From: an uncultured Clostridia bacterium
Lineage (GTDB): Bacteria; Bacillota; Clostridia; Oscillospirales; Oscillospiraceae
NCBI GenBank assembly: GCA_947653875.1
Contig: CANTIK010000010.1
Location: forward strand, 12,366-76,365
Direction: 5' to 3'
Length of the DNA: 64,000 nucleotides
Of this stretch, positions 20,531-41,514 are shown one piece after another. The position numbers were made by a program, and so were the translations under genes. How positions within the stretch are numbered: the first letter of the stretch is position 1; every line of letters starts with the position of its first letter. The notes under the pieces were generated by a model. It was not told the origin of the DNA. It saw only the letters and a program-made list of their open reading frames with translations, and searched no databases.

Positions 20531-20661
20531 GGTATATAGCGGTCTTTAGGGAAAGTCCGGGAAAAATATTACGGAGGAGGCGCAACCAACGGGGCGGTTT
20601 GGCAGTCTTTATAGGTGAAAGCCGGTTTTCATGGAATCTGACAAATCTGGAGGTGATCGGA

Positions 20662-23100: not shown

Positions 23101-23111
23101 GAGGAGAATGT

Positions 23112-24167: not shown

Positions 24168-24255
24168 CTATTCGGGCGGAATTGCATGAGCTGCCTGGTG
24201 GATTTGGGGGACGAGGGACGGTATAATGGGGACATCCTAAGAAGAAAGAGGTGCC

Positions 24256-24723
24256 ATGATGAATTTGGGAAACAACCTGTTCCAGGCGCGTAAGAAATGC
24301 GGGCTCTCTCAGGAGGAGGTGGCGGAAAAGCTGGGGGTGAGCCGTCAGACCATATCCAAGTGGGAAACCAGTGAGACGCTGCCCGACATCCGGCAGTCCA
24401 AACGGCTGGCGCTCTTGTACCGCCTGTCGCTGGACGAACTGATCGACTTTGATATGGATATTCAGGAGGTGGAGCAGGCCATTGAGCGGACCAGTGCCGC
24501 TCTGGAGGAAAAAATCGATTGGACAAAGGCTTGGGGCAAAAAATACCCCATCCTGCTGACCTACCGGCAGGATGTGAACGTGGGCAACTACGCCGTACAG
24601 CTGTCCGCAATGATCGCAGATCTAAAAAGCAGCTACGGCTACAGTGAGCTGGACGCCTTCCTGGTATTGAAGGATATTCTGGCCGCCGTCTGGAAGAGCC
24701 GGAAACAGCGGGAAAAGGCGTAA
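24256..24723 (+). CDS. XRE-family HTH transcriptional regulator
   Basis: LSQEEVAEKLGVSRQTISKWE HTH_3 motif. Confidence 0.8.
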   Translation: MMNLGNNLFQARKKCGLSQEEVAEKLGVSRQTISKWETSETLPDIRQSKRLALLYRLSLDELIDFDMDIQEVEQAIERTSAALEEKIDWTKAWGKKYPILLTYRQDVNVGNYAVQLSAMIADLKSSYGYSELDAFLVLKDILAAVWKSRKQREKA

Positions 24724-24861: not shown

Positions 24862-25359
24862 TCATTTTGCGATATATCCCGTCCTTGCAAGACGGTCGAT
24901 CGCTGAATCGATCCTCTTTTCCGAATACTTATTCCCCTTGATTTTAATAACTCCCAGTTTTACAGCAGATACCTCTTTTTTTGCCTGCAAATAGACATAA
25001 AGCGACGTGGCCAACAGCTCCAGCTCGCTTGGGGAATCCTTGGCAAATTCATCTATAACCTCATTAACAATTGCATCATTATAAGGCTCACGTTCCAGAA
25101 CGGATGTATCTGCCACAGAAATCAAATGTTCCATAGGGGTATAATGGATTTGCAAAATGCCCTCGTCACTTAATTCTCTAACCGCAAAATCTAAATCCGC
25201 ACTATATGGCCCATAGAAATGAATTCCGTAATCACAGCCAAGGTCTATCTGCTTTGCCTGAATCAGGAACACAATTTTTTGAAGTGTTTTTTTACACGGC
25301 GGAGCGTTTTCCTTCGTTATCCTGTTGACGATATTTACAATTGCATGATTATTGACCAT
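24862..25359 (-). CDS. YwgA-like small protein (possible DUF4065/Panacea-like fold)
   Basis: ATG at 25359 with GGAGG 8 nt upstream. 165 aa. KTLQKIVFLIQ...FYGPYSADLD motif. AT-rich. Immediately downstream of the HD gene, as in the B. subtilis ywfO-ywgA pair. Confidence 0.6.
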   Translation of the reverse strand: MVNNHAIVNIVNRITKENAPPCKKTLQKIVFLIQAKQIDLGCDYGIHFYGPYSADLDFAVRELSDEGILQIHYTPMEHLISVADTSVLEREPYNDAIVNEVIDEFAKDSPSELELLATSLYVYLQAKKEVSAVKLGVIKIKGNKYSEKRIDSAIDRLARTGYIAK

Positions 25360-25376
25360 GAATAATCCTCCGAATT

Positions 25377-26678
25377 TCAATCGCTTTGTAAGCGCTCTAT
25401 TTCTGCCAATACCTCCCCGACGATGTCCTTGCCTGCATAAATGCGATGGATGTTAATGGGCCTTACGATAGATTCTAAAATAATGGACTCTTCCATAATA
25501 TTTGTCACAGCGCGCGTCTGTGGATCAAGAATCATAATACCCTTTCCGCTGTCATCCTGAGGCGCAAGCAGCACCGGCGCAAGCTTATGTGCAGCTTTAT
25601 CAACACTGTCGTAGGCAACTTGGTCTCCATATGCCTCTTGCAGGATTTTATAGATCACTTTGGCATTTGTCTTTTCACCTTTTCCTGCATGAGCTTTTGA
25701 TTCAAATACACATGTCATAATTTCTCGCTGCTTAAAGGCAATGACCTCCGGTGCCTCCGAATCTGCAATCAAGCTGAGAATTCGAGAATCATTCCATTTC
25801 AAATACTCGTGAACTTCCGTTGGATACTTTCCATTTGGGAGGATCGCTTTCAAACTTTTGACCAGAACCTTGTCCAAATATCTGCGTGTCTTATGGAAAT
25901 AAACCTGGATAAACATAAAATATCTCGCAAGCACGAATTCCTCTAAGGCCTGGACACCTCCCCTCTCAATAGCAAGCTGTAGTGTGTGGTCATCTTTATA
26001 GACAGTCAATGTTGAAATAAATCTATTCAGATCATATTTGCCATAAGTAACGCCACAATACAAAGAGTCCCTCAACAAATAATCCATCTTATCGCAGTCA
26101 AGCTCGCCATCCATAAAGCTTTGCAAAAAGAGAAAATCAGGAACGACAAATTTCTCATCTGTAACCTGTTTTCCCTCATAAATCATCCAAACAAGCTCTG
26201 GCGTGATATCATAAGCTTCACCATATTCCCGCTGAAACTTCGAGCCAATCCTGCGAATATGATCTGCGATCTCAGTTTCAGTAATAATAATCCGTGTAAA
26301 ATCTTCATGCTTTTGCCCATTCTCAAACAATTCCTCAGATGCATGAGAAAAAGGAGCATGTCCCAAATCATGGGTCAGTCCAATAATCCGGAGCAATTGC
26401 CGGTACCACGCCGTCTTACGCCGGTTTTCCTCCCTGTTATCTGAAAAGAGGTTCGGCGTTTTTTGCGTCACAGAATCAAATGCGCGGGAGGTCAAGTGCA
26501 TAGTACCGATAGAATGTCCAAACCGTGTATGTTCAGCCCCATGATAAACCAAATATGTGGTAGCTAATTGATGTATATTGCGTAATCGCTGAAAGGGAGC
26601 TGAGTTTATGATTTTTAATTCATCTTCAGAAACATCAATGAATCCATGGACAGGATCTCTAAATTGGTACATAGGCAC
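25377..26678 (-). CDS. HD-domain phosphohydrolase, YwfO/SAMHD1-like putative dNTP triphosphohydrolase
   Basis: 433 aa. EHTRFGHSIGTMHL and THDLGHAPFSH HD motifs. AT-rich relative to the flanks. Confidence 0.8.
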   Translation of the reverse strand: MPMYQFRDPVHGFIDVSEDELKIINSAPFQRLRNIHQLATTYLVYHGAEHTRFGHSIGTMHLTSRAFDSVTQKTPNLFSDNREENRRKTAWYRQLLRIIGLTHDLGHAPFSHASEELFENGQKHEDFTRIIITETEIADHIRRIGSKFQREYGEAYDITPELVWMIYEGKQVTDEKFVVPDFLFLQSFMDGELDCDKMDYLLRDSLYCGVTYGKYDLNRFISTLTVYKDDHTLQLAIERGGVQALEEFVLARYFMFIQVYFHKTRRYLDKVLVKSLKAILPNGKYPTEVHEYLKWNDSRILSLIADSEAPEVIAFKQREIMTCVFESKAHAGKGEKTNAKVIYKILQEAYGDQVAYDSVDKAAHKLAPVLLAPQDDSGKGIMILDPQTRAVTNIMEESIILESIVRPINIHRIYAGKDIVGEVLAEIERLQSD

Positions 26679-26973
26679 TCTCCTTTTGTAAAGGGAGACA
26701 TAGTTTTTTTATTTTAACAGAAATGTATACAGATTTCAATCCCTTGATTGTGGATATCCTTTCAGGCCTCCCGGTCCGAAGGGCTTTTTTATCCAATTCA
26801 TGACATCAGTACGCCTTCTCCACGCCGCCGGAGCAACCCCCACCGATTTGGTGAACTCCTTGTTATCATCGGGAAACCATATATAGCAATCATCAGAATT
26901 CCTGGCAAAAGCTCGGGGATACAAAGGGCGCATGGCCGCGTTGTCGTCCTTGGCGGGCGTCAGCCCGCCTGCG

Positions 26974-27041
26974 TCCTCCGCCTTGCCCTGCGCCCTTTGT
27001 CCTCCCCTCCTTTTTTGTCATGAATTCTGAAGCTTGCTATA
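26974..27041 (+). repeat. 68 bp repeat, copy A (inverted partner at 40003-40069)
   Basis: About 64 of 68 positions identical to the reverse complement of 40003-40069, with one 1 nt indel. Confidence 0.8.
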
Positions 27042-27043
27042 TA
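27015..27043 (+). promoter_or_regulatory. Sigma-A-like promoter inside repeat copy A
   Basis: TTGTCA, 17 nt spacer, TATATA, pointing toward the XRE gene at 27308. Confidence 0.45.
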
Positions 27044-27202
27044 TAGTCGAAGCAGTTGAAAATCGGTAAAGTTCGGCGGCCAAAACAGGGCGTGGACTTC
27101 GTTGTTGTCCTTGGCGGGCGTCAGTCCGCCTGCGTCCTCCGCCTCGCCACACCCGGTTTTCCCTCGCCTCCTTTTTACCGATTCTCAACTGCTTCGACTA
27201 TA
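27042..27202. repeat. 29 bp inverted repeat pair flanking a 103 bp spacer
   Basis: 27042-27070 versus the reverse complement of 27174-27202, one mismatch. The spacer holds a second copy (27100-27144) of the 45 nt unit at 26939-26983. Confidence 0.75.
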
Positions 27203-27307
27203 CTATAGGAAAAACAGAATATGCAACCGCTGGTTGCGGAAGTTTCAAGCGCAGTTGATAGCGTGCCGCGGGAAATGGCGGTATGATTTTGGCAAGGAGG
27301 TAAGAGA

Positions 27308-27763
27308 ATGTTGTCTGAAAAAATCTATTCACTCAGGCGGAAGAATGGACTTTCACAGGAGCAGCTTGCGGAAAAAATCGGTGTTTCACGGCAAGCGGTA
27401 TCAAAATGGGAGGGAGGGCTGTCCACCCCGGAATTGGACAAGCTCAGGGCGCTGAGCGAATGCTTTCAAATTACAATGGACGAGCTGACCGGAAACCGGA
27501 CGATCCATGGTTCCGGCGATGCAGACAGGGAGGAACAGGCCCCGGCTCCCGGCAAAGGAGGAGAGAGCAGACTGGGCGTTTGCCTCTGTGTGACAGGCGC
27601 CGTCTGTCTGATCCTGTTTGGCGTCCTGACCGTTATGCACCCATCGACTGTTGACCGGATCAGCGGCTCATCGGCGGTCACCCTGAACGGAACGGGAATG
27701 CTCATTCTCCTGTTTGTGCTGCTGATGGTTTCAGGAATGCGGATGATGTTTAAGAAAAAATAA
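27308..27763 (+). CDS. XRE-family HTH protein with C-terminal transmembrane region
   Basis: LSQEQLAEKIGVSRQAVSKWE HTH, then two hydrophobic helices. AAGGAGG RBS. Confidence 0.8.
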   Translation: MLSEKIYSLRRKNGLSQEQLAEKIGVSRQAVSKWEGGLSTPELDKLRALSECFQITMDELTGNRTIHGSGDADREEQAPAPGKGGESRLGVCLCVTGAVCLILFGVLTVMHPSTVDRISGSSAVTLNGTGMLILLFVLLMVSGMRMMFKKK

Positions 27764-27788
27764 GAACCTGTATTCAGGAGGTAACACG

Positions 27789-28025
27789 ATGAAGAAATAC
27801 AAGCGGCTGACCTGTCTTTTTGCCGTTCTTGCGGCGCTGCTTTCGCATGTCATGTGCGCCGCGGTTGCATACAGCTACTGCGCGCTTCAATGGGGCGGAC
27901 AATACGCCGGATGCAGCGCCCCGGCCGGCACAGCGTTTCTGCTGTGCATTCCATACGGGATTGGCGTGCTGATATGCGCCGCCTCGGCCTGGCTTTTCAA
28001 TGTAAAGTCTCAGCAGTCCGTATAA
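27789..28025 (+). CDS. Small membrane protein
   Basis: 78 aa, GGAGG RBS, about 3 hydrophobic segments. Confidence 0.5.
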   Translation: MKKYKRLTCLFAVLAALLSHVMCAAVAYSYCALQWGGQYAGCSAPAGTAFLLCIPYGIGVLICAASAWLFNVKSQQSV

Positions 28026-28152
28026 GCGGCGACGCTCTTGAAGGCGTTCTTTCCAGCGGAATTTCTTATCTTTCGCGCCGGCCTGCCGATATGTTAGTAT
28101 AAGCAGCCATCAAAACCGCCGCGGCGGTTTGATAAGAAGGGAGGCCCCAGGA

Positions 28153-30855
28153 ATGAACGAGCTGGCCATTGGCAGAAGAAAGGACGCCGCCATTTTCCGG
28201 CAGCAGGGAACGGTCAAAGCGGAGAAGAAGGCCGCCGCCACCTCCGCGCAAAAAGCGGAGAAGCCTGTAAGCAGCGCCGCCTCGGACTCCGTGCGGCAGC
28301 GGATGACCGGGAGCGTCCGCGCGGAGGCCCTCTCCCGTGAGAGCCGCCGGACGCTTCAGGCGGGCGAAGCCGTGCTGTCTGAGATACAGGAGCGTCTGGG
28401 CCGTCTGGCGGAGCTGGCGGAAAAGGCCGCCGGCGGCGGCGAGGAGGATCGGGCCGCCCTCCAGAAGGAGCTGACGCGCCTGCTGGGGGAGATCGACCGG
28501 ATGGCCGGGAGCGCCGCCGGGGATAAATCCCTGTTCCTGAGCGGAGACCCGGACGCCGCCGTGGGCGCGGACGCCCTCCCCGCGTGGCTTCTCAACGGTA
28601 TTGCCCAAGGAGCGGTCTCCCCGGAGCGCCTGCTGTCCGCCCTGGGCCTGGACCAGACCGCCAGCGGAGCGGACATTCTGGCCGCCATCATGGGCAGCTC
28701 GCCCGAGGGAAACGCCGCCGTGGGCTATCTGGCCGCCCTGTACCTGGGCGCGGTGATCTCCGGCGGAGGCCAGACTGAAAATCCGGACCCCTCTTTGGCC
28801 CTGGACGGCCTCCGGCAGCTGCTGGCGGCGGTGGAGAGCGGCGTCCCCCTGGACCGGGCGGTGGAGCTGCTGACGGGCGGCGAGTTTACCAGCCTCTCCG
28901 ATTTCCAGAACCAATTCACCCAGGGCACGATCCCCGGGATGGAGGACTTCCTCACCAACCTGCTGCTGTCCGGCGGTGATTCCCCCCTGGGCGAGGGCCA
29001 GTCCCTGCTGGCCCTCCTGGCGGCCACCTTCGACGGGATGGGGCCGGATCTGCTCATGGACCTGCTGGCCGCCCTGCCGGTCCCCGGCGCCGCCGCCGCT
29101 CCTGATCCCGCCTCCTCCGGGCCGGACGCCGCCCTGGCGGAGAGCGCGCCCGGTCTTCCGGATTCTTCCGGGGCATCTCCCGTCTCTCTCCTGACCTTCG
29201 GGAACGTGCAGGTGATGGGCCGGGACCTCTCCGGCGTATCCATGGACGCCAACGGCGTACTGACCATCGGCGGCACAGCGGACGTAACCGTTCTGGGAAC
29301 CGGCCAGGGCGGGCAGGCTCTCCGCCTCACCGGCTCCGGCGCGGTGATCCTGCGCAATGCAGATGTCTCCACCCTGACTGCCGCCGCCCCCGAGACCCGC
29401 GTCGTCAGCGCGGGCGGAAACACGATAGGTACGGTGCAGCTGGGCGAAAACACAACCCTCACCCTGGACGGCGGCCTGCTGCGCCTTGGCTCCGTCCAGG
29501 GCGGAGCGCACAGCCTCCTCCGCCTCACCGGCGGCGCGGCGGTCCTGCTGGAGAAACCGGCCCAGTCCGGCGAAGCCGCCGCCCTGACGGTTCCCGTGGT
29601 CCTGGACGGCCCCGCTTCCCTGATGGCCCGGGCCTCGGTCGTCCGCGATACCGGCGGAAAAGCCCTCCAGCCCTTCGACGTGGTGTGGAAGGCGCTGCTT
29701 CCGGGCTTCCGGGCCATCACCTCTCTGGAGATCGACGGCCAGCGCTCCCGCCTGTCCCTCACCCGGGACCAGGCCATGCGCCTCTGGCTGGCGAAGGGCG
29801 ACCTCTCCAACCAGGGCTATCCCGCGCACAGCCTGGTCATCCGGGGCCGGGACCGGATGGGCCGCCTCCGGACCCGGTACGCCTATCTGCGCTGGGACCA
29901 GCGCGCCGGCGGCTTCGAGGAGACGGAGCTGTACCCCAACCCCTTCACCGTCACCGGCGGCGAGCCCGGGGAGGACTGGGTGTATGAGGAGGGCTCCCAT
30001 ACCCTGCACATCCTGTCCGCCCAGGTGTCCGCCATCTCCGGCGGCTCCGGCGTGGACGCGGACCAGTCCCCCTTCAGCGGCAGGATTGTCCTGGCGGACA
30101 GCATCGGCGCCATCGAGCTGGCCCTGCGGGGCGTAGCCTGCCGCGTGACCTCCGGCCGGGCCTTCTATCTGGGGTGCGGGAATGACGTGACCCTCCTCCC
30201 GGAGGGCGGCACCGCCAACTTCTTTGAGAGCGGCGCGGACTGCGCGGGCATTTCCGTAGGGGAGGGCACCTCCCTGCGGGTGGACTGCACCCGCACCAAC
30301 GGCCTGCCTGCCGGGACAATCACTGCCTCCGGCGGTACCAGCATCGGCGGCGACAGAGGCCGGATTCCCGCCGGACGCATTCTGATCCGGGGCGGCGCGG
30401 TCACCGGCGGCGAGCGGCGGGGCTCCACAGAGTCCGTGACCATCGTAGGCGGCATGGCCCCTGACAATAAGGGCGGGGCCAAGGTCCTGGCCCGCATGGG
30501 CGTCATTCTCCAGGCAGGGGAGGATATCCTGATTCTGCCCCGAATCCGCCTGTCCGCCAAATCCCTTCGGCTGGACGGCCTGTGCGTGTCTACCCGCGAG
30601 CAGGCCCATGCCGCCGTGGTGTCCATCGAGGTAGGCCGCCGCTGGATTGCCCGCCTGCAGGATGACTGCGGCGTTCTCTCCGGCCAGGTGAAGCAGAGCG
30701 GATTCTTTCCCGTCCGGCATCCCGCTGTCCCTGTGCGGGACGCATCGGAGGCCGGGATACTGCTGGAGAATATCGGCCCCATATCTTTTTCCCGGGCCAT
30801 GCGTCTCCGTTCCGGCCGTAAGAACGCAGAGGATGTAGAGCAGCTGCTGCGGTGA
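28153..30855 (+). CDS. Giant divergent flagellin-like protein with central beta-helix-like insert
   Basis: N-terminal segment AGEAVLSEIQERLGRLAELAEKAAGGGEEDRAALQKELTRLLGEIDRMAG aligns to the Flagellin_N consensus. The C-terminus (VRDASEAGILLENIG...VEQLLR) resembles Flagellin_C. The middle is Gly/Thr-rich and repeat-like. Confidence 0.65.
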   Translation: MNELAIGRRKDAAIFRQQGTVKAEKKAAATSAQKAEKPVSSAASDSVRQRMTGSVRAEALSRESRRTLQAGEAVLSEIQERLGRLAELAEKAAGGGEEDRAALQKELTRLLGEIDRMAGSAAGDKSLFLSGDPDAAVGADALPAWLLNGIAQGAVSPERLLSALGLDQTASGADILAAIMGSSPEGNAAVGYLAALYLGAVISGGGQTENPDPSLALDGLRQLLAAVESGVPLDRAVELLTGGEFTSLSDFQNQFTQGTIPGMEDFLTNLLLSGGDSPLGEGQSLLALLAATFDGMGPDLLMDLLAALPVPGAAAAPDPASSGPDAALAESAPGLPDSSGASPVSLLTFGNVQVMGRDLSGVSMDANGVLTIGGTADVTVLGTGQGGQALRLTGSGAVILRNADVSTLTAAAPETRVVSAGGNTIGTVQLGENTTLTLDGGLLRLGSVQGGAHSLLRLTGGAAVLLEKPAQSGEAAALTVPVVLDGPASLMARASVVRDTGGKALQPFDVVWKALLPGFRAITSLEIDGQRSRLSLTRDQAMRLWLAKGDLSNQGYPAHSLVIRGRDRMGRLRTRYAYLRWDQRAGGFEETELYPNPFTVTGGEPGEDWVYEEGSHTLHILSAQVSAISGGSGVDADQSPFSGRIVLADSIGAIELALRGVACRVTSGRAFYLGCGNDVTLLPEGGTANFFESGADCAGISVGEGTSLRVDCTRTNGLPAGTITASGGTSIGGDRGRIPAGRILIRGGAVTGGERRGSTESVTIVGGMAPDNKGGAKVLARMGVILQAGEDILILPRIRLSAKSLRLDGLCVSTREQAHAAVVSIEVGRRWIARLQDDCGVLSGQVKQSGFFPVRHPAVPVRDASEAGILLENIGPISFSRAMRLRSGRKNAEDVEQLLR

Positions 30856-30877
30856 CCCCTTCGACTATATGGCAAAA

Positions 30878-30905
30878 GGCCCTCCAGCATTGCTGGAGGG
30901 CCTCT
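30878..30905 (+). terminator. Terminator-like hairpin
   Basis: GGCCCTCCAGC/GCTGGAGGGCC stem. Weak T tract. Confidence 0.4.
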
Positions 30906-31215
30906 GTGCGTCAAAAAAGCGGCGCAGCCACTTTTTTGAGTGAAAGGCGGTCATTCGGCTGATGCCGGCGGCCCAAAGGCCGCCCCGCTTCACTCTGCGC
31001 TTCGGCTGTGCGCCTATGGCGCACAATTCGATGCTTGCTCCGCGCAAAGTGTTTTTCCCCGTGGGCCGGCCAAAGGCCGGCTTAGCACTAAAAGCGCCGC
31101 TGTGCGGCGCTTCACGACGTACACGCCGAGAGCAAAGCGATTGGATTTTTTTGCCGCCTGCGTGCGGCAAACTCTCATGGGGCCGTCAAAGGCGGCTTTA
31201 GGCCTGTCCGGCCGG

Positions 31216-31644
31216 TCACTCCCGTTTTTCCTTCCTTTTCGCCACGCTGTTGGTATCCAGAGAATCCCGGAACACCACGAACCGGTCGTAGAGGAACTCC
31301 AGTACAAAATTGGCAATCATATTGATGGCCGTCACCAGATACTCGTTCCAGCGCAGCCCCTCCGCCAGATAATTCCCCAGCAGTGTGGACAGCGGCGTGA
31401 ACACGCAGTAGAATCCGAACACCAGCGCCATGGCTTTGGGCACATTGCTGGCGGATTGGAAGGTGTACCGCCGGTTCAGCGTAAAGTTCCACAGCACCGA
31501 CAGCGCCAGCGCAATGAGATAGCAGGGCCAGTAGCTCCAAGCCGTCAGCTCATTGAGCAGGGAGAACGCCCCGATCTCAATGATCCCCGCAGAGAGCGAA
31601 AACAGGAGAAATTTCAGAGAGCGCAGAATTTCCTTGCGATCCAT
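31216..31644 (-). CDS. GtrA-family membrane protein
   Basis: 142 aa, 4 TM, WNFTLNRRYTF motif. Confidence 0.8.
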   Translation of the reverse strand: MDRKEILRSLKFLLFSLSAGIIEIGAFSLLNELTAWSYWPCYLIALALSVLWNFTLNRRYTFQSASNVPKAMALVFGFYCVFTPLSTLLGNYLAEGLRWNEYLVTAINMIANFVLEFLYDRFVVFRDSLDTNSVAKRKEKRE

Positions 31645-31659
31645 GGCCGCACATCCTTT

Positions 31660-33246
31660 CTAACCGTTCAGCGCCCGGAACTGCGCCCTGTTGGCTGCGT
31701 ACAGCTTCCGGAACACCGCGTAATTTTTATCATAAGCCGCCTTGACGGCGGGGTCCGGCACAAAGGTCCGCTCCGGCGGGATCAGCGTCCCCACCGCGTC
31801 CAGATCCGCTATCACCCCCAGACCCACCGCCATTACCGCCGCCGCGCCCACGCTGCCCGCGTTCTGAGGGCTGGCCACGGTCTGAACGGTCCTCCCGGTC
31901 ACGTCGGCCAAAATCTGAGACGTCACCGGCGACAGCGCCCCGCCGCCCACGAACCGGACGGGATCAGAGGTGGACACCTTTTTCGCCTGACACTCCAGCA
32001 TCCACCGCAGATGGAAGCACACCCCTTCCAGCACCGCCCGGATCAGCTCCGTCTTCCCGGTGTCCAGCCGGATGTTGAAGAACATCCCCGCCGCTGCCGG
32101 GTCCTCAAAGGGACACCGGTTGCCGTGGAGCCAGGGGGTAAAGATGACGCCTCCGGCCCCCGGCGGGACCCTGCCTACCGTCTCGGTGAGGTAGTCGTAG
32201 AGGCTGGCGTACACCGCCTCCTGACTGCCGGCCACATCCTTCTTTTCCAGATAAACCCCGATCTCATCCAGCGCCAGATGGTCCTTGACCCACTCCAGAC
32301 ACTTCCCGGCGGTCTCCATCTCGGCGAAGTAGTTGTACCGCCCCGCCTGAGCCCCCGCGATAGCGGCAATCATGGCATCCACATCCACCAGCTGCCGGTC
32401 CGTCACCGTAGACACCCACCCGGAGGTGCCGCAGTAGATATGCGTGCTGCCCACCGCCGCCGCTCCGGCGCCGATGCCGATAAGGGACGCGTCCCCTCCG
32501 CCGCCGAACACCGGCGTACCGGGAACCAGCCCCAGCTCCACCGCCGCCCGGTCCGTCAGGCCTCCCGCCCGGTCCACACTCTGGATGACCGGCGGCAGAT
32601 GGTCCATGTTCACGCCGAACATCCTGCATAAGCTTTCACTCCACGCCCGCTTTTTCGTGTCATAGAGCAGGGTAGCGTAGGCAGAATCCTCCGTCATCAC
32701 CGCCCGTCCGGTGCAGCGAAGCAGCAGGTATTCCTTCACGTCCAGCCACATGTCCGTCCGGGCGAAGTTGCCCGGCTCGTGACTCTGGACCCACTTGTAC
32801 TTCCACACCGGGTCCTTGACGCTGCTGGGCACCGCGCCGTTGGCCCTCAGGCATTTCAGCAGCTTTACAACGTTGGCCCCGGCAATCTGGGGGCCGTGGG
32901 CCAGTCCCTTTTTCAGCTCCCCGCCCGCCCGCTGGTCCATGTAGCTCATGGCCCGGCGTACCGGCTTCCCGGACCGGTCTACCAGCACCAGCCCCTGCAT
33001 CTGGGAGCAGAAGGACAGTCCGGCGATTTGTTCCGGCTTGATGTCCACCTTTGAAAACAGCTCTCCGGTGGTATGGCACATGGCCTGCCACCACTCCTCC
33101 GGGTCCTGTTCCGCGCCGCCGTTCTCCACCAGATATAGACCGTAGCCCTTCTGGGCGCTGGCAAGCAGGCCGATCCGCTCCTCCACAGAAAACAGACAGG
33201 TCTTCACTCCTGTGGTGCCGATGTCATAGGCCAGCACATAGGTCAT
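31660..33246 (-). CDS. FGGY-family carbohydrate kinase (xylulokinase-like)
   Basis: Start at MTYVLAYDIGTTGVK with GAGGAGGGA RBS. FGGY N- and C-terminal domains. Confidence 0.85.
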   Translation of the reverse strand: MTYVLAYDIGTTGVKTCLFSVEERIGLLASAQKGYGLYLVENGGAEQDPEEWWQAMCHTTGELFSKVDIKPEQIAGLSFCSQMQGLVLVDRSGKPVRRAMSYMDQRAGGELKKGLAHGPQIAGANVVKLLKCLRANGAVPSSVKDPVWKYKWVQSHEPGNFARTDMWLDVKEYLLLRCTGRAVMTEDSAYATLLYDTKKRAWSESLCRMFGVNMDHLPPVIQSVDRAGGLTDRAAVELGLVPGTPVFGGGGDASLIGIGAGAAAVGSTHIYCGTSGWVSTVTDRQLVDVDAMIAAIAGAQAGRYNYFAEMETAGKCLEWVKDHLALDEIGVYLEKKDVAGSQEAVYASLYDYLTETVGRVPPGAGGVIFTPWLHGNRCPFEDPAAAGMFFNIRLDTGKTELIRAVLEGVCFHLRWMLECQAKKVSTSDPVRFVGGGALSPVTSQILADVTGRTVQTVASPQNAGSVGAAAVMAVGLGVIADLDAVGTLIPPERTFVPDPAVKAAYDKNYAVFRKLYAANRAQFRALNG

Positions 33247-33305
33247 GGTATCCCTCCTCACACATGATCGTTTCCACACGCTGCCGGGGCGGACCGTATC
33301 CTCCC

Positions 33306-33956
33306 CTATGTCCTGTGGACGATCTCCGATTGTTCGAATGTAAACGCCGATTCCAGAAATTTCAGCAGCTCCCGTTCCAGCCGGTCCTCCTGCTCCTCCG
33401 GCGTACCGCCGCAGTATAGCCGGAAGCGCTCCCGGTAGTAATCACAGCATCCGGCAAACTGGACCATCATCAGCAGGTTGTCGAAAAAGAAAGCCAGCAT
33501 CGCCGGATCGATGTCCCGGCGCAGGTCTCCCGCCGCCTGTCCGGCGGCGATGGTCCCGGCATATAACCGGGAGGTGACGCCCTCGATCTCTCCCGCCAGC
33601 CGCCGGGCCTCCTCTCCGCCGGAGGCGGCAAGGACACAGTACAGCCGCACATACCCGGCATGTTCCCGGGAGAACCGGAGCAGGGCCCGGATGATCCGCC
33701 GGGCATACTCCCGGAAGCCGGCCTCCTCCGAGGTGACCTCCGCCAGCGTCCGGTCCAGCGCCTCCAGACTCCGGTCCAGGCAGGCCCGGAAGAAGCGCTC
33801 TTTATCTCCGTAATATTTATACAGGGCTCCCACGCTGATGCCCGCCCGGTCTGCGATGGTCCGCATGTTGGTCCCCGCAAGGCCCCGGAGGGCGAACTCC
33901 CCCACTCCGGCCTCCAGAAGTCTCTCCAGCTGCTCCTCTGACAGCTTTTTCAGCAT
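33306..33956 (-). CDS. TetR/AcrR-family transcriptional regulator
   Basis: Start at MLKKLSEEQ. HTH TNMRTIADRAGISVGALYKYY. Confidence 0.8.
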   Translation of the reverse strand: MLKKLSEEQLERLLEAGVGEFALRGLAGTNMRTIADRAGISVGALYKYYGDKERFFRACLDRSLEALDRTLAEVTSEEAGFREYARRIIRALLRFSREHAGYVRLYCVLAASGGEEARRLAGEIEGVTSRLYAGTIAAGQAAGDLRRDIDPAMLAFFFDNLLMMVQFAGCCDYYRERFRLYCGGTPEEQEDRLERELLKFLESAFTFEQSEIVHRT

Positions 33957-35056
33957 AAATCCTTTTTCCCCCTGTAGGACTTCTGATAGATCAGCCGCTG
34001 GAGCGCCGCGTCCGCAGGATTCAGGGGGCGGCATCCGGGGACTGCCCGGGCGTACAGCCGCGCCGCGCAGCCCTTGGCTATCAGGGCCCTGACGGCATCC
34101 ACATCGCTCTCGCAGGTCCCGGCGCACAGGGCTCCCATGCCCCGCAGCAGCACTGCGTTCCGGCCCCGGATGGCCCGCTCGATTCGTCCCGGCTCCGCCG
34201 GTATGGAGAGAATGTCCGCTCCGGCAATCTGGGCCAGGTCATCCAGATAGGGCCGCAGCCTCCGATCCGAAGCGCTGACGGCCAATGTCTCATAGGATGT
34301 ATCGTGGGCAATATATTGGAAGTTCCCCGCCCGGTAGACCGCCGCGTGAAGAGCGGCGGCCCGGGGAAGGGAAACCCCGGTCATAGGATAGAACCTGCTC
34401 CTGCCCTTCCGGGTCAGACAAAAGGCGTCCCCCCGCCGGAAGCTGGTCCCCAGATCCGGCGGGACGGGGAGGGGTTTTCCATCCTCCAGCTGGTCCCGGA
34501 CACGGGTTTCACAGATTTCTTCCAGGGCCCGGGCGGCGGCAAAGGCGTCCTCCATGTCTCGGCCCAGACACAGCGCCCCGTGACTGCGCAGAAGGAAGGC
34601 CTGGCAGTCCGGCCACGCTTCCATCTCCGCTTCCACCGCACGGCGCAGGCGGGCCGTGCCCGGCAGGCCGTAGGATGCGCAGGGAACCCGCTTCCCCAGC
34701 AGGGGATGGATAAAGCCCGTCAGGGCCCGGCCCTCGGTCCCGGCTACGGAGGCATAGTACTGGTGGGTATGGATCACGAAGTTTACTTCGGGACGCAGGC
34801 GGTAGGCGCCGGCGTGGATGCCCTTCTCGCTGGAGGGCTTGATAGTTCCCTCCCAGGAGACGTCCGCGATGTTCACCAGTACCAGCTGCTCTGGGTGCAG
34901 GGCCTCATAGGCCAGACCGCTGGGGGTGATGAGAAACTGAGTGTCCGACACCCGGGCGCTGATGTTGCCCCAAGTGCGCTCGATGAGGCCCTCTCCGGCC
35001 AATCGGGCCGCCGCGTGCAGGATCTGTTCCCGGACCCGGGTTTCCGAGGCGGTCAT
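33950..35056 (-). CDS. Class II aldolase/adducin-family protein (tandem domains)
   Basis: RTWGNISARV...ITPSG...VIHTHQ motifs. The second half is a degenerate repeat of the fold. Confidence 0.75.
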   Translation of the reverse strand: MTASETRVREQILHAAARLAGEGLIERTWGNISARVSDTQFLITPSGLAYEALHPEQLVLVNIADVSWEGTIKPSSEKGIHAGAYRLRPEVNFVIHTHQYYASVAGTEGRALTGFIHPLLGKRVPCASYGLPGTARLRRAVEAEMEAWPDCQAFLLRSHGALCLGRDMEDAFAAARALEEICETRVRDQLEDGKPLPVPPDLGTSFRRGDAFCLTRKGRSRFYPMTGVSLPRAAALHAAVYRAGNFQYIAHDTSYETLAVSASDRRLRPYLDDLAQIAGADILSIPAEPGRIERAIRGRNAVLLRGMGALCAGTCESDVDAVRALIAKGCAARLYARAVPGCRPLNPADAALQRLIYQKSYRGKKDLC

Positions 35057-36543
35057 GGCTGGACCTCCAGAGGGCCGCAGCCCGCGAACACACGGTCGAA
35101 GCGGGAGAGGACGTCGTCGATCATCTCCTCGGTATAGGCCGCGCTGGTATACAGGCGGGAACCGGCCAGGGTGACGATGCCCTCCGCCATGTAGGCCGCG
35201 CCCATATGCTCCATCTCCTTCTGCCGGATGCCGGTCTGCTTGAGAATGTCCGGGATGGTCCAGGGCTTTTTCCAGTCGATGCAGAAGTGCATAGTTCCCG
35301 CATTGTCCAAGTGGCAGATGGAGCCCTGGTTGAAGGCCACGAAGGGAAGGTTATATTTCTTGATGAGCAGCTGCAGACCCCGGGTCAGGCGGTCGCCCAT
35401 GCGGCCCGCCGTTTCGCAGGCGTTGGTGCGCTCGATCTCACACAGGGTATAGTAGCCCGCCGCGCAGGAGATGGGGGTCGCCGCCATGGTGCCGCCGCAC
35501 ATAGCCTTGGGGACCTTCTTTCCGGAGGAGTCCAGACCCGCCCCAAGGTGGGCCATGCAGTCCGCGTGGCCGCCTACACCGCCGGCGCCGGGGTAGCCTC
35601 CGGCGATGATCTTGCCGAAGACCGTCAGGTCCGGGTCTACGCCGAAGTAGCCCTGTGCGCCGCTGAGTCCGATGCGGAAGCCGGTGACCACCTCGTCGAA
35701 AATCAGAAGGGAACCGTACTGCCGGGCCAGCCGGGCCGCGCCACGGACGAACTCCCGGCTGACGGGCCGGGTGCCGCTCTCGGGACCCATGGGCTCCAGA
35801 TACACCGCCGCCGTGCCGCCGGTGAGGCGGTTGGCCTTCAGCTTCCGCTCCAGGTCCTCCAGATCGTTGGGGAAAAATTCGTCGGTATGCTTGAAGACGA
35901 AGTTGGGCACGCCCTTGGACATGATGCCCTTGGTGCCCGGGACACGCATTCCGTAGGCAAGCTGGTCGGACCAGCCGTGGTAGGCACCGCCCATTTTCAG
36001 GATGTTCTTTTTGCCGGTCTTCAGGCGGGCGATCCGGGCGGCGCACATGGCCGCCTCCGTGCCGGACCCCAGCATCCGGAACATCTCCACCGAGGGGACC
36101 ATGTCGGAGATCTTTTTTGCCAGCTTGTACTCAAACTCATGGAACAGGCCAGTGGAGGGGCCGCAGGTGTTCAGAAGCTCGATGACCTGATCCCGGACCG
36201 CCGGAACGTTGCTGCCCAGAATGGTGGGGCCTCCGGCCTGGAGCAGGTCGTAGTACCAGTTGCCGTCGATGTCCCACAGCTTTGCACCCTCCGCCCTGGT
36301 AATCACAATGGGGAAGGGGTAGTTGAAGGCCAGGTTGTGCTGGACCCCGCCGGGGATGACCTTTTTCGCCTGGGAGATCATCGCTTTGGACTGGGGACAC
36401 TTGGCGTCAAAGTAGTTTTCCACGTAGTCCGCCAGCTTATCACGGCGGATGGACCAGACGGGCTTTTTAATCAGCTCGTCCAGCTGGCGGGTCACCTCCG
36501 CCGCGTCCAGGTACTGATCGATGGCAAAACCGTTATAGGACAT
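35053..36543 (-). CDS. Class III (GSA-aminomutase-like) PLP aminotransferase
   Basis: Start at MSYNGF with GGAGGAAG RBS. LIFDEVVTGFR and FGKIIAGG (PLP lysine). Confidence 0.85.
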   Translation of the reverse strand: MSYNGFAIDQYLDAAEVTRQLDELIKKPVWSIRRDKLADYVENYFDAKCPQSKAMISQAKKVIPGGVQHNLAFNYPFPIVITRAEGAKLWDIDGNWYYDLLQAGGPTILGSNVPAVRDQVIELLNTCGPSTGLFHEFEYKLAKKISDMVPSVEMFRMLGSGTEAAMCAARIARLKTGKKNILKMGGAYHGWSDQLAYGMRVPGTKGIMSKGVPNFVFKHTDEFFPNDLEDLERKLKANRLTGGTAAVYLEPMGPESGTRPVSREFVRGAARLARQYGSLLIFDEVVTGFRIGLSGAQGYFGVDPDLTVFGKIIAGGYPGAGGVGGHADCMAHLGAGLDSSGKKVPKAMCGGTMAATPISCAAGYYTLCEIERTNACETAGRMGDRLTRGLQLLIKKYNLPFVAFNQGSICHLDNAGTMHFCIDWKKPWTIPDILKQTGIRQKEMEHMGAAYMAEGIVTLAGSRLYTSAAYTEEMIDDVLSRFDRVFAGCGPLEVQP

Positions 36544-36876
36544 AGTCGCTTCCTCCATTCCTTCTTGTGAACAATGATTCACGTCATGGGACCAGCGTAC
36601 CACAACGGGGAAGGATTGTCAACGGATGGGAGGAATTTGTTCCTCGTTTTGTTGATTTTGTCAAGGTGCGCTGCGACAGCCCTTTGGACAGCCCGGCTGC
36701 GCTGGCCTGATATCCGGCCCGGGCATCGACTTGCTTCCGTACATGTGAACGCGGAGGTTTGTCTTCCCTCAAACTGGGGACAGAAACGGGGAAAAGTTGC
36801 CGGGGAGAGGGCAACGGGTGGGGAAAATTTTTCTGCGGCGGGTGCGGGGCATTGGTTATTCACGCCCTCACATGGG

Positions 36877-37130
36877 TCATCGGCGCAAAATCGTAGACAA
36901 ACGGTTTTTTATCGCTATAATGGGGCGTGCATTGCTCGTGAAGGTGTGACGGAGCATATGGAGATGGGAGTCCTCCAAGCCTTTCACCTTTTTCTTTGCC
37001 TGACGGCACATGATGCTTACTGTCCCCGGCCCCGTCAGGCCGGAGGCAGACAAAGGATATTGCTCTATATTCCTCCGCACCGGACCGGGTGCAGACCTCA
37101 TATTTATGGCGAGACAGGGAAAGTAAAAGT
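36877..37130 (-). pseudogene. Tyrosine recombinase (phage integrase) remnant
   Basis: Translation contains KGLEDSHLHMLRHTFTS (box II HxLRHTF), but there is no catalytic Tyr region and no proper N-terminus. Confidence 0.5.
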
Positions 37131-37917
37131 CCACAAAAGGTAACAGTAGCAATACTTAGGGAGAATTAGGGAGAGATAGGGAAAGTGTTAGATAATCCTA
37201 TCTGAAATATAAATGCGATGATGGAATCTTGAAAGGGATAGAGCAGGCGGCTTTTCATCTTCACTGCAGCACAAGACAACTCCAGAGGGTTTTGAACCAA
37301 TGTGAAGCTGATGGATTTGTCAAAAAAGTAGGGAAGGGAACGTATAAACTGTTTGGAGCGGAATGATTCAGACAGTCAACTGTCTATTAAAAGCGGGAAA
37401 TATGGGTAGAAAGATAATTGAAATAGAATTGCATTTTTCTGCTTTATATGCCACCATTAGAATTGTGAACCGGCAGGGAAAAGCAAGATAGTTTGTCTGC
37501 CGTTATCACCGCTGATAAATCCAAATTGTTTCGCAGTATATCACTGGCAGATGGATTGCTAAGCTTTTATAGCTTACTGAATCATGGGATGAATGCTTGG
37601 GAAACGGTGCTGAATGTAGTTGCATTTCCCCGCCTTTTGTGCTACTATTTTGAGAGAAAAATCAAGCTGTCAAAGCGGATTTTGTATAACAGACCGTATG
37701 AACGCCTTTAGCTGCGGATGACACGGCTAAAGACGTTTTTATCATTTTCGTTCTCCTCTTTTAACCATTTATTTTGAATATAATCTTGTCTAAATCGCCA
37801 ATATTTTCTCTATGGCAAAAGCAATTTTTGAAGCAATAGTCCTGCAAATATTATTTACAAAACCGCGAATGTGCGGCATAGAAACGGCATCGCTGAATTT
37901 TTACCGGAGGACAAATC

Positions 37918-38928
37918 GTGAATACTGAAGCCACTTTTGCAGAAATCAGAAATAGATATTCTGATGAATACTATAGTACAGAGAATTCCATTCTTGTCCA
38001 GGGGGATTCCTTGGAACTGTTAAAAAAAATTCCTGACCATAGTGTCGCACTGATTTTGACGGACCCGCCCTATCATTCAACCAAAAAGCGCAACATAATC
38101 GGTGATACCAACTTCTCAAAAGATTCTGAATATATCGAATGGATGAAAAAATACGCAATAGAATGGAAAAGAGTCCTGAAACATAACGGCAGTATTTTTT
38201 GCTTTTGTTCCTCAACAATGTCGGCACAGCTGCAGGTAATGTTCTCTGCGTATTTCAATGTATTATCCGAAATTGTCTGGACGAAGCCAAATGCTCCCGG
38301 GTATGACGGCTGGAAGCAAAAGATGAAAAAAGAAGCTCTCCGTCAATGGTATTCTTATTCGGAACGCATCATTTTTCTTGAAAATGCCGCGGAGGGGAAT
38401 TTATTCAAAAGTTATTTTGGCGGGCGGCTTACTGCCTGGAGAAAAAGCGTTAATATGACCACAATCAAACTGGCTGAGCTAACTGGGGCATATGGCAAAG
38501 TCAACCACGGAGGGGCTGTTGCAAATTGGGAAGCAGGACGAAATATTCCGAGCAAGGAACAGTATGAAAAACTTAAAAAGGCACTTTCGGAAGCAGGCGT
38601 CCCTGACCTTCCGGAGTATGAAGATGTCATCCGTCCATTTAATGTAAGTAAAGATATTGAATTTACAGATGTTTGGTCTTTTGAAAATGTGCGGCAGTAT
38701 AAAGGCAAGCACCCGGCCGAGAAGCCTGTGGATTTATTGGAACATGCTATAAAGGCAACCACATATGAAGGCGACATTGTCTTGGATTGTTTTGCCGGTT
38801 CTGGATCGACGGGCGTTGCCGCACTGCACTTAGGCAGAAGAGCGGTCTTGTTTGAAATTGATCCAGCATGGTGCAGCTATGGGAGAGATTGTCTGCATGG
38901 CAGCAGCGCTTTCAGCGTCATTGGATAA
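37918..38928 (+). CDS. Type II DNA methyltransferase, beta-class N6A/N4C (DPPY before FxGxG)
   Basis: GTG start after GGAGGA. TDPPYHS motif IV, C-terminal DCFAGSGSTG motif I, HTH-like insert (TTIKLAELTG...ANWEAGRNIP) between them. AT-rich. Confidence 0.85.
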   Translation: MNTEATFAEIRNRYSDEYYSTENSILVQGDSLELLKKIPDHSVALILTDPPYHSTKKRNIIGDTNFSKDSEYIEWMKKYAIEWKRVLKHNGSIFCFCSSTMSAQLQVMFSAYFNVLSEIVWTKPNAPGYDGWKQKMKKEALRQWYSYSERIIFLENAAEGNLFKSYFGGRLTAWRKSVNMTTIKLAELTGAYGKVNHGGAVANWEAGRNIPSKEQYEKLKKALSEAGVPDLPEYEDVIRPFNVSKDIEFTDVWSFENVRQYKGKHPAEKPVDLLEHAIKATTYEGDIVLDCFAGSGSTGVAALHLGRRAVLFEIDPAWCSYGRDCLHGSSAFSVIG

Positions 38929-38963
38929 CAAAAAACCTGAGTGTTTTATACTCAGGTTTTTTG
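38929..38963. terminator. Bidirectional terminator between the convergent M and R genes
   Basis: CCTGAGT/ACTCAGG stem flanked by A6 and T6 runs. Confidence 0.65.
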
Positions 38964-38969
38964 TTGGCT

Positions 38970-39968
38970 TTACTGCAGATAACCGGCTTCCTTATTTTGG
39001 GCAATCACTTTTTGCATCCAATCGAGCGTAGGGTATATACCTGCATCTTTTACGACTACGTTGCAGAAATGGCAGCCCCATCCAAGATTATATGGGCGAT
39101 GATTAAACGCTCCGAATTTTAGCTCTTCAATATGGAACAAGTTGACTTGGGTTACCGTGAGATCCGGCACTTCCCGGCCTTCAGGCTGGGCTAAACGGTT
39201 CAGAAACTCTTCTCCGGATAGTTCCTTCAGGCAAAGAGGACAAATCGTATGATTTAGAGAATTGATAATTCTTTTGAACCGCAGTTTTTCAAAATCAAGC
39301 AAGCCGTGCCTTTGGCTTTTGTCCAAAACCAAACGTTTTCGCAATTCGGCATCTTCACGCCGCATACCATTATTGGCCATTGTTTCAAGGGAGTCCCTGC
39401 ACAGCCAGAAAATCGCTTCTAACTGCAGTCTGCATTCCTTGATTGTGTCCTTTGACGCGTACTCATATAATCGGATGCCAGCTCCTTTGGAAGATTGGGC
39501 AGCATAGCCCAGATTGACTTTTTGCGCGCGGCCAGCATCAATTGACGTATTGGCAGGAACACGCGCGGCATACTGCCCGCCTAATGGCGCGGTTCTGCTG
39601 TTTGCATATATCCATCCATAATTATCGGGCGAATAGGCTTCCCAATCTGCGCGGGTTTCATAAAAGACGAGAGCGTTTTCTCCTAAAGCCAGATCAAATT
39701 TTTGAAAATACTCTGTCGGGTTTTCTATGGAAAAATAATCTGCCGGAGAAATCAATACGATATATCCACATTCAAATTGATCGGACATATCTCTTAACGC
39801 GGGACTTTCCTGCCATTGATGGAAGGGAATCAAAACGGTATTGCTGCGCGAAACACGATTTTGAAAAATAACGTCGTCATCAGCACCTCTGGTCTGTCCT
39901 GTTTTGCTGAGTTTCTGTTCCAGCAGTTGTGGTAATTTCGGTAATCCAGGTTTACTACGTCTCGGCAT
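38970..39968 (-). CDS. Putative type II restriction endonuclease with C-terminal beta-beta-alpha-Me (HNH-like) Cys/His module
   Basis: 332 aa, AT-rich, convergent with the methyltransferase. CPLC...LFHIE...FNH...GWGCHFCN motif. Confidence 0.55.
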   Translation of the reverse strand: MPRRSKPGLPKLPQLLEQKLSKTGQTRGADDDVIFQNRVSRSNTVLIPFHQWQESPALRDMSDQFECGYIVLISPADYFSIENPTEYFQKFDLALGENALVFYETRADWEAYSPDNYGWIYANSRTAPLGGQYAARVPANTSIDAGRAQKVNLGYAAQSSKGAGIRLYEYASKDTIKECRLQLEAIFWLCRDSLETMANNGMRREDAELRKRLVLDKSQRHGLLDFEKLRFKRIINSLNHTICPLCLKELSGEEFLNRLAQPEGREVPDLTVTQVNLFHIEELKFGAFNHRPYNLGWGCHFCNVVVKDAGIYPTLDWMQKVIAQNKEAGYLQ

Positions 39969-40000
39969 GTTTACTTTCCTCCATAAATATTTTTTTCCTA

Positions 40001-40029
40001 TCTATAGCAAGCTTCAGAATTCATGACAA
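40001..40029 (-). promoter_or_regulatory. Sigma-A-like promoter inside repeat copy C, driving the endonuclease gene
   Basis: Minus strand TTGTCA, 17 nt spacer, TATAGA, about 30 nt upstream of the RBS/ATG at 39968. Confidence 0.5.
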
Positions 40030-40069
40030 AAAGGAGAGGAGGACAAAGCGCGCAGGGCAAGGCGGAGGA
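40003..40069 (-). repeat. 67 bp repeat, copy C (inverted partner of 26974-27041)
   Basis: Reverse complement matches copy A, including the promoter hexamers and the GAATTC/AAGCTT-containing spacer. Confidence 0.8.
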
Positions 40070-40115
40070 TGTGGGCGGCAGCGAAGCCCTGCGCCATTTG
40101 GCGTCTGACGGCAGT

Positions 40116-41294
40116 TCACCAAAGCTTGAACGTCTGAATCCCCCACTTGGCAGCCTTATAGGACAATGTCTCCAGCTCTGAGGCCGCCTCCTTCAGCAGC
40201 TGCCGGACGGGCAGCTGCTGGGGACAGTGGCTCTCACATTTTCCGCAGCCCACGCACAAGGAGGCGCTGCTGGGGTTCTGCCGCATGGCGGTACACTGCA
40301 GATAGTCCCGCCGGCCGGAAGCGCGTCCCTCGGCATACATGGCGTTATAGCACCGGAAGGTCCCCGGGATATCCACACCCTTGGGGCAGGGCATGCAATA
40401 CCCGCAGCCGGTGCAGCCAACCTTCATATACCGCCGGATCTCCTCCCTGACCCGTTCCACCAGAGCCCGGTCGCCATCCGTCATACACCCCGGCAGGCAC
40501 GCGGAAGCCAAAGCGACATTCTCCTTCACCATCTCCATGGAGTTCATGCCGGACAGGACACAGGTCACCTCCGGCTGGTCATACAGCCACTTGAACGCCA
40601 GGGCGGCAGGGGTACGGCCCTGGGGATCGTTTTGGAACAGCGCCCTGGCCGTCTGGGGCAGCATGTTCACCAGCCGCCCGCCCCGGAGGGGCTCCATGAT
40701 AACCACCGGCAGGCCCTTGGCATGGGCGTACCGCAGGCCCTCCACTCCGGCCTGGGAGGTCTCATCCATGTAGTTGTACTGAATCTGGCAAAAGTCCCAG
40801 TGGTAGGCGTCCACCAGCTGCTTGAACACAGGGGCGCTGCCATGATAGGAAAAGCCGATGTTCCGGATCTCCCCGGCCTCCAGCTTGCCGGCAATCCAGT
40901 CCTCTATCCCCAGGGCTTTCAGCTTCTCCCAGGTGGCGGCGTCGGTGAGCATGTGCATGAGGTAGTAGTCGATATGATCCGTCCCCAGGCGGCGCAGCTC
41001 CTCCCGGAAGATCTTTTCCGCGCCCTCCACGGACTTGATGAGGTAGTGGGGCAGCTTTGTAGCCAGATAGACCTGGTCCCGGCGTCCGTTCCGGCGGAGG
41101 ATCTCTCCCACCGCCGCCTCGTTTCCGGAATATATATAGGCCGTATCCAGGTAATTTACGCCGCCCTCAATGGCCGCCGTCACCTCACGCTCCGCCTTGT
41201 CCAGGTCTGTACCGCCTCCCTTCCGGGTAAAGCGCATACAGCCGTAGCCCAGGAGGGAGATGTCCTTCCCCTTCTTGTCCTTCCGGTATTGCAT
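40116..41294 (-). CDS. Aldo/keto reductase with C-terminal 2x[4Fe-4S] ferredoxin domain
   Basis: Start at MQYRKDK. AKR motifs (LDTAYIY). CTGCGYCMPCP and CVGCGKCESHCP clusters. Confidence 0.85.
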   Translation of the reverse strand: MQYRKDKKGKDISLLGYGCMRFTRKGGGTDLDKAEREVTAAIEGGVNYLDTAYIYSGNEAAVGEILRRNGRRDQVYLATKLPHYLIKSVEGAEKIFREELRRLGTDHIDYYLMHMLTDAATWEKLKALGIEDWIAGKLEAGEIRNIGFSYHGSAPVFKQLVDAYHWDFCQIQYNYMDETSQAGVEGLRYAHAKGLPVVIMEPLRGGRLVNMLPQTARALFQNDPQGRTPAALAFKWLYDQPEVTCVLSGMNSMEMVKENVALASACLPGCMTDGDRALVERVREEIRRYMKVGCTGCGYCMPCPKGVDIPGTFRCYNAMYAEGRASGRRDYLQCTAMRQNPSSASLCVGCGKCESHCPQQLPVRQLLKEAASELETLSYKAAKWGIQTFKLW

Positions 41295-41514
41295 GATCCT
41301 GTCTCCTTTCGACAAAATGGGAGAAAATTCCCATCGTTCTCTTATGTGCGCCCCGCCTCCATCCGATAAAGGATAAGAAGAGATATGGCGCATGTGTCCG
41401 GGCCGGCGGGTTCCCGCCGGCCCTTCCCATAGGCCCGGGAATATTTATGATGACTTTTGTCCCCGGATGGAGTATAATACCATCATCACAACTTGAGCAT
41501 GGGAGGATCGTCCA

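Follow-up and report, generated by a model that had tools for sequence, protein, structure and literature searches.

What does a pair of inverted repeats signify when it brackets 13 kb of bacterial DNA: the ends of a mobile unit, a recombinational switch, or neither? The question arises in a 64,000-nucleotide (nt) stretch of contig CANTIK010000010.1 from an uncultured Clostridia bacterium of the family Oscillospiraceae. This whole stretch is called the window, coordinates refer to it unless another contig is named, and G000 denotes its own genome, a 3.42-Mb draft in 106 contigs. The sequence at positions 26974 to 27041 (copy A) matches the reverse complement of positions 40003 to 40069 (copy C) over 67 to 68 nt, the two differing by three substitutions and by one inserted or deleted nucleotide in the T run (about 94% identity; the longest identical run is 30 nt). 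The similarity is far beyond chance for a single pair, and the repeat search reports it as two inverted repeats, I3 and I4. A preliminary description of this DNA had read the pair as the boundary of a composite mobile element, as a promoter cassette spread by recombination, or as a substrate for large-scale inversion. The observation itself is confirmed by alignment; the interpretation is only partly supported. We argue that the 68-mer is very probably the right arm of e1, a 160-bp noncoding palindromic miniature inverted-repeat transposable element (MITE) that is mobilized by IS630-family (DDE_3) transposases and duplicates TA, and that the bracketing of 13 kb by copies A and C is almost certainly a coincidence.

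The e1 palindrome and its target sites

Copy A had been delimited as a unit of 68 nt, but it is one arm of a complete 160-bp palindrome on the plus strand (positions 26882 to 27041), whose 156-bp body, TAGCAATC...GCTTGCTA, lies between TA dinucleotides at positions 26882 to 26883 and 27040 to 27041. Aligning the copies together with their flanks defined a 160-bp unit with sharp ends, TATAGCAATC...GCTTGCTATA; these boundaries are common to 14 copies, and the flanks are unrelated beyond TATAG...CTATA. Both ends read TATAGCAA, and the arms pair over their whole length. The element thus forms one long imperfect hairpin (RNA fold of -88.6 kcal/mol, z score of -10.8), and both strands fold about equally well. 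No open reading frame (ORF) of at least 70 amino acids (aa) is listed within e1 except spurious overlapping ORFs, and an Rfam scan of positions 26700 to 27400 returned only chance-level matches (E values of at least 0.15).

Searching the own genome with the 68-mer gave 15 near-identical matches, most with weaker inverted partners beside them. The 68-mer is a common dispersed unit, largely the outcome that the preliminary description had named as counting against its own reading, and is present in 14 full copies of e1 (91 to 100% identity, three of them identical to copy A) and in additional halves. Directly abutting e1 is a sister element, e2, a 161-bp palindrome at positions 27042 to 27202 on the plus strand (TATAGTCGAAGCAG...CTGCTTCGACTATA), which is likewise a dispersed repeat, with 24 full copies in this genome. 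The two elements have in common a 77-nt center (about 85% identity), whereas their arms cannot be aligned, and 42 copies of this common core occur in the 3.42 Mb.

Copy C, which had been taken as a matching unit, is a truncated e1 on the minus strand (positions 40003 to 40078). Only element positions from about 84 to 160, the right half, remain; the copy is broken near the hairpin apex and has no left arm and no center. The ATG of an endonuclease gene lies 34 nt downstream of its intact TA end, and the 46 nt that separate copy C from the stop codon of a reductase gene on the other side are unique in the genome. An own-genome search found the missing half to be absent at the other edge of the restriction-modification (R-M) island to which the endonuclease belongs. 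Other e1 half copies end at positions 75 and 91, near the hairpin tip, and no transposase genes were found beside partial copies in the own genome, where the partials are solo halves. We infer that half copies reflect breakage centered on the palindrome; a deletion or rearrangement originating at the palindrome center would then have removed the left half of copy C.

Empty sites were sought by joining both flanks of each e1 copy and searching the genus with the product. Five relatives lack the e1 copy found at C24:31472-31630 in G000: they read CTGCYTC-TA-GTATGTCC, with only one TA, and G000 reads ...TTC-TA-TAGCAATC...GCTTGCTA-TA-GTATG, a TA duplication. For the e2 copy at C18:51239-51399, G017 and G070 read ...CATGCCTG-TA-T..., in contrast to TA-e2-TA in G000. 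G036 and G014 likewise have no e1 at the C58 and C20 loci, although their junctions there are blurred.

The ends of these elements recur on autonomous relatives in the same genus. A Pfam DDE_3 search found IS630-family transposase genes in 22 of 49 genus genomes, with two genes in the own genome. Elements with e1-type ends occur in G066, G064, G024, and G012, and as a deleted copy in G021; they end in TATAGCAA(T/C)(C/A)ATCA, which equals the first 14 to 15 nt of e1, and they have TA flanks wherever both sides are visible. The G066 element (G066:C50) is about 1.0 kb long with both ends present. For e2, the counterpart is an element of the own genome (G000:C9), whose TA-flanked ends, TATAGTAAAAACAGTTGAAAAAAGG, match e2 at 23 of 30 positions and which is the likely transposase source for e2 in this genome; an IS630-family element of G061 matches e2 positions 12 to 30 at 18 of 19. 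In general form, the termini are TATAGCAA..ATCA for the e1 type and TATAGT.....CAGTTGAAAA..GGTA for the e2 type. The ends of a third subfamily, e5, match an insertion sequence (IS) of G028. In all cases the match is limited to the outer 14 to 30 nt; the IS630 elements encode a DDE_3 transposase, whereas the MITEs encode nothing, and their inner arms and centers are unrelated to the IS interiors and specific to the MITEs. The C9 element (G000 C9:31246-32147) is compact, at about 0.9 kb, with two overlapping ORFs of 119 and 183 aa. The second IS630-family element of the own genome (C50) was considered as a partner for e1 and rejected, its ends being unrelated.

Because single-TA empty sites exist and the ends are shared with IS630-family elements of the same genus, we interpret e1 and e2 as TA-duplicating IS630-type MITEs. 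Noncoding DNA with terminal inverted repeats (TIRs), a TA duplication, many dispersed copies with presence/absence variation, and ends shared with a DDE_3 IS are the features of IS630/Tc1-mariner-type MITEs, and all were found here. An IS630-family transposase would insert the element at a TA dinucleotide and duplicate it, and copies A and C would have arrived separately, each in TA-rich intergenic DNA bordering an accessory island. Simple arithmetic (15 copies in 3.42 Mb) gives about 0.8 pairs expected by chance within 13 kb.

Several observations weigh against this interpretation. A clean TA duplication is resolved at one e1 and one e2 locus, the other empty sites being blurred by divergence, and the e1-cognate transposase is not in the own draft genome, which holds only a 24-aa relic and paralogues at 28 to 32% identity. 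Placement is also not random. The contig of 78.5 kb that contains the window carries 4 of about 15 e1 copies, roughly 10 times the expectation, and 10 of 38 copies of e1 and e2 have a 1-kb flank below 50% GC, compared with 6.3% of genome windows. Therefore, some link of these copies to plastic regions is real. The association with island borders raised in the preliminary description thus survives in a weak form, as an association with AT-rich DNA, but one that is expected anyway of a TA-targeting element: such an element, tolerated in accessory DNA, would give this placement.

The distribution of e1 is patchy: of 37 sampled genomes of the genus, 15 carry the element, and none of 24 other families of the order does. 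The pattern of its central hairpin was found in over 94 contigs from species-representative genomes, almost all of them labeled as Oscillospiraceae, Oscillibacter, Flavonifractor, or Clostridia metagenome-assembled genomes (MAGs), and when a wider stretch of the center was used as the query, 9 of the family's 133 other genera had matches. The plasmid and phage collections gave no match. Copies of e1 and e2 are found on the 5' as well as the 3' side of genes and face either way, and gene-context statistics with a GC3 heuristic were too noisy to show a 5' bias. Tighter inverted pairs of e1 than copies A and C also exist, at C10:1977-2136/3710-3869 (1.6 kb apart) and at C15:1754-1912/2213-2371 (0.3 kb apart); the left arms face each other in both, and the pairs may reflect local hopping or small MITE-flanked segments.

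Rival readings of the repeats and the 13-kb interval

Copies A and C could instead be the substrate for a 13-kb inversion, by homologous recombination or a dedicated invertase, that would swap the genes downstream of each end. The length and identity of the pair speak for this proposal, and its 30-nt perfect run makes inversion possible in principle, although homology of this extent is at the minimum for RecA-type exchange. A rearrangement with MITE-rich breakpoints is also present nearby. In G014 and G036, position 6882 abuts positions 28051 to 28057 head to head, and the own genome therefore has positions 6882 to 24708 in the opposite orientation relative to these two genomes. One junction falls within 24.7 to 28.05 kb, which holds an AT-rich HD island, e1, e2, and an XRE module (see below), and the other lies beside a different, 175-bp repeat at positions 6691 to 6872. 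However, this rearrangement does not involve copy C, no invertase gene lies nearby, the contig assembles in one orientation, and nothing in the relatives points to the pair formed by copies A and C. We therefore regard a 13-kb inversion as improbable.

Repeat-rich junctions do coincide with rearrangements. A simple inversion relative to G014 and G036 fails as an account of the flipped segment: G014 DNA beyond position 24708 maps to another contig of the own genome, and several events, not a single inversion, therefore lie behind the difference. The 175-bp repeat belongs to a palindromic family (TACCAATAGG...CCTATTGGTA) with about 10 copies at 94 to 98% identity, and its copy at positions 6691 to 6872 lies 10 nt from position 6882, where synteny with G014 and G036 flips. 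Compared with G014, the window has about 500 bp extra at positions 14782 to 15351, and G014 has about 770 bp extra at positions 7227/7228.

A second proposal concerns the 160-nt units themselves, which might be structured-RNA genes or a selected family of regulatory hairpins and not mobile DNA. The very stable fold would fit such a role, as would an asymmetric center that is nearly invariant while the arms change but stay complementary. On the other hand, the units have TA duplications, empty sites, and ends in common with IS630-family elements; the two strands fold comparably, no Rfam family matches in the scanned interval, and the copies take no consistent side or orientation relative to genes. 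Taken together, these points make a purely RNA-based identity very improbable, and an RNA-level role could exist alongside mobility.

Still harder to sustain is the view that the two repeats terminate a composite transposon or mobile island, with the 13-kb segment traveling between them in one piece. In its favor, two related copies stand in inverted orientation, AT-rich accessory DNA is found at both, and e1 copies cluster on this contig. Against it, the truncation of copy C is on its outer side and leaves no outer terminus for a transposase to cut, and the interval has evidently not been inherited as a unit. When a 20-kb query was compared with 49 genus genomes and the matching loci were fetched, the 13-kb block was not present as a unit in any of the 48 other genomes, and a 5.6-kb part of it (positions 31208 to 36815) was matched as a unit at 74 to 92% identity in at least 18 genomes with differing neighbors. 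In addition, a Pfam search of the ORFs tested between 24.1 and 43.2 kb found no recombinase or integrase domain. A composite transposon is accordingly hardly credible here.

The contents of the interval, which are mostly borne out by Pfam as the preliminary description gave them, suggest instead a mosaic of genus-conserved genes and genome-specific islands. Directly outside copy A, as had been described, is an AT-rich accessory island on the minus strand (positions 24862 to 26678; GC content of 0.42 to 0.44) that encodes an HD-domain protein (HD and HD_assoc_2 domains) and a partner; it has one partial match in the genus, in G016 (query positions 5298 to 5744). Inside, an XRE regulator (HTH_3 domain) and small-ORF module occupies positions 27223 to 28050 on the plus strand. 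Its positions 27223 to 28001 match G017, G034, G027, G067, and G013 at 74 to 78% identity, with different flanks at G017:C381 (only the G017 flanks were compared), and G014 and G036 have no such module upstream of the flagellin-like gene. On this comparative evidence the XRE module appears to behave as a separate movable module.

The flagellin-like gene follows (positions 28051 to 30892, plus strand; 908 aa, with a weak Flagellin_N match), and it adjoins the metabolic block in G036 too. This block, the conserved genus DNA at positions 31208 to 36815, carries genes for GtrA, an FGGY kinase, a TetR regulator, a class II aldolase, and a class III aminotransferase, and it is flanked by interspersed repeats at positions 30903 to 31205 and 36652 to 36834 (38 and 8 genome matches, self included). 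An integrase remnant had been placed next, but no integrase domain was found by Pfam at an E value of 0.01 or better in the ORFs between positions 36571 and 37711. The AT-rich type II R-M pair (positions 37918 to 39968; GC content of 0.41 to 0.45) consists of an N6_N4 methyltransferase on the plus strand and a BstXI-family endonuclease on the minus strand and has no listed match in the 49 genus genomes. On the far side of copy C lies a core gene for an aldo/keto reductase with a 4Fe-4S domain (positions 40116 to 41393, minus strand); in relatives, homology stops at the reductase stop codon and other DNA follows.

Least credible of all is an identity as REP/REPIN-type palindromes, with a RAYT (HUH) transposase as the agent of spread: the units are dispersed intergenic palindromes that form hairpins, but REPINs give no TA duplication and have conserved arms with variable loops, the reverse of e1 and e2, which duplicate TA and whose ends match DDE-type IS630-family elements.

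If the MITE reading holds, its main value is negative: two insertions of a common MITE account for the 13-kb bracket, which should then not be labeled as the edge of an island, as a composite transposon, or as a switch. On the positive side, an element family is now defined by its ends, TA duplication, parent IS630-family elements, and sister subfamilies. It is available for masking or annotation in genomes and MAGs of gut Oscillospiraceae, in which repeats of this sort interrupt assemblies and imitate regulatory structures.

Known elements and the common center

The e1 family is, so far as we found, uncatalogued, and it belongs to a well-known kind, the IS630-type MITE, and operates in the manner of a Correia element. 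The Neisseria elements of that name (CREE/NEMIS) are noncoding, about 155 bp long, with TIRs that begin with TATAG, a target duplication, a conserved directional core, and many dispersed copies as well as solo half copies (PMC2649163). Their ends carry an outward -35 hexamer and a partial -10 hexamer that the flank may complete (the "Black promoter"), and they do form promoters; what mobilizes them is undetermined (PMC2649163). Elements of the e1 family resemble them in size, TATAG TIRs, target duplication, directional core, half copies, and end hexamers. The target duplicated by Correia elements is TA. In contrast, the two have no sequence similarity apart from the TATAG start, the 26-bp Correia repeat and the neisserial core are missing from e1, and the hosts belong to different phyla; e1 works like CREE but is not CREE. 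For e1, the mobilizing family can be named, namely, the IS630-family elements with matching ends, and, unlike Correia elements, the e1 family combines one core with several unrelated arm classes. Integration host factor binding, RNase III cleavage, and promoter activity have been demonstrated for Correia elements; any counterpart in e1 would be putative.

A second comparison is with the repeat unit of pneumococcus (RUP) and other IS630-mobilized MITEs, which, like e1, are small, noncoding, TA-targeting elements of Firmicutes with IS630-like ends. The ends of RUP, which is about 107 bp long, resemble those of an IS630-family IS thought to move it in trans. The RUP sequence is unrelated to that of e1, and e1 further differs in that only its outer nucleotides match an IS, its inner arms and center are its own, and no cognate transposase was found in its draft genome.

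The only unusual feature of the e1 family is its combination of a common asymmetric center with several unrelated arm classes. The central hairpin is found inside at least seven arm classes, mostly of about 160 bp and one of 276 bp, and these MITE subfamilies, spread over about 10 Oscillospiraceae genera, have arms that match different IS630-family lineages. Across the subfamilies, the asymmetric center of about 45 to 55 nt (...CGTTGTCGTCCTTGGCGGGCGTCAGCCCGCCTGCGTCCTCCGCCTTGCC...) is nearly invariant, and the arm sequences change yet stay complementary. In this comparison 29 nt of the center are conserved by construction, being the search pattern, whereas the conserved bases on either side are not. 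Elements were trimmed by a fixed offset, and minimum-energy folds paired flanks spuriously.

The 276-bp element, with GCGTCGATTAACAAGG ends and the same central hairpin, occurs at about positions 5110 to 5385 of L108 (CAKTBC010000001.1) and in L068, L075, L076, and L127, at 94 to 97% identity across these five different MAGs. In L108 it lies upstream of a GTP-binding, release-factor-3-like gene.

Promoter-like ends

The preliminary description assigned a sigma-A promoter to each copy, both directed into the 13 kb. The hexamers are literally present. In the right arm (positions 26974 to 27041, plus strand, in copy A), a -35 hexamer TTGTCA is followed by a 17-nt spacer ending in TGC and then by TATA; the left end of e1 is built in the same way, with TTGCCA. 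This TATA consists of the element end plus the duplicated TA, and the final two bases of the -10 hexamer come from the flank. The inward orientation is as described but incidental; at the opposite end of the complete e1 that contains copy A, an equivalent hexamer pair faces outward. Of the earlier readings, a promoter cassette spread by recombination comes closest to the truth, but the spread would be TA-targeted transposition, and with an incomplete -10 at both copies promoter activity is no more than plausible.

Four element ends, including that of copy C, lie 15 to 34 nt from a start codon with a ribosome-binding site, and transcription of those genes must therefore start in the element or pass through it. 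As with the Black promoter of Correia elements, an e1 end would give a -35 hexamer, a TGn spacer, and half of a -10 hexamer that the flank completes, and some copies could in this way drive a neighboring gene, a possible case being that for the endonuclease, which lies 34 nt from copy C. Weighing against this step, the -10 hexamers of copies A and C (TATATA and TATAGA) both lack the final T and neither is called by a consensus promoter scanner, the flank supplies that T at 5 of 15 right ends and at none of the 14 left ends, and several sister subfamilies have no -35-like hexamer. By analogy with Correia elements, we regard promoter activity at some e1 copies as possible but somewhat doubtful.

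A broader proposal, which we consider unlikely, is that the common center is a functional module, either a binding site for a host factor or transposase accessory or an RNA-level signal, which has been repeatedly rearmed with new ends or kept while the ends coevolved with diverging transposases, and that the e1 ends also act as portable extended -10 promoters that rewire their neighbors, including the BstXI-type endonuclease gene. Should the ends prove to be active promoters, Firmicutes would have in this family their counterpart of the Correia elements, and strains of abundant gut bacteria could differ in expression because of it.

Other repeats accompany e1 in this genome. At positions 20323 to 20485 lies a 163-bp palindromic repeat (AGAACCTGTATTCATAAC...GAATACAGGTTCT) with many genome copies; G014 and G017 lack exactly this repeat at the orthologous site, and members of its family directly adjoin the e1 copies at C20 and C58. 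Together with the e1 family, such interspersed repeats mark almost all block boundaries in the window.

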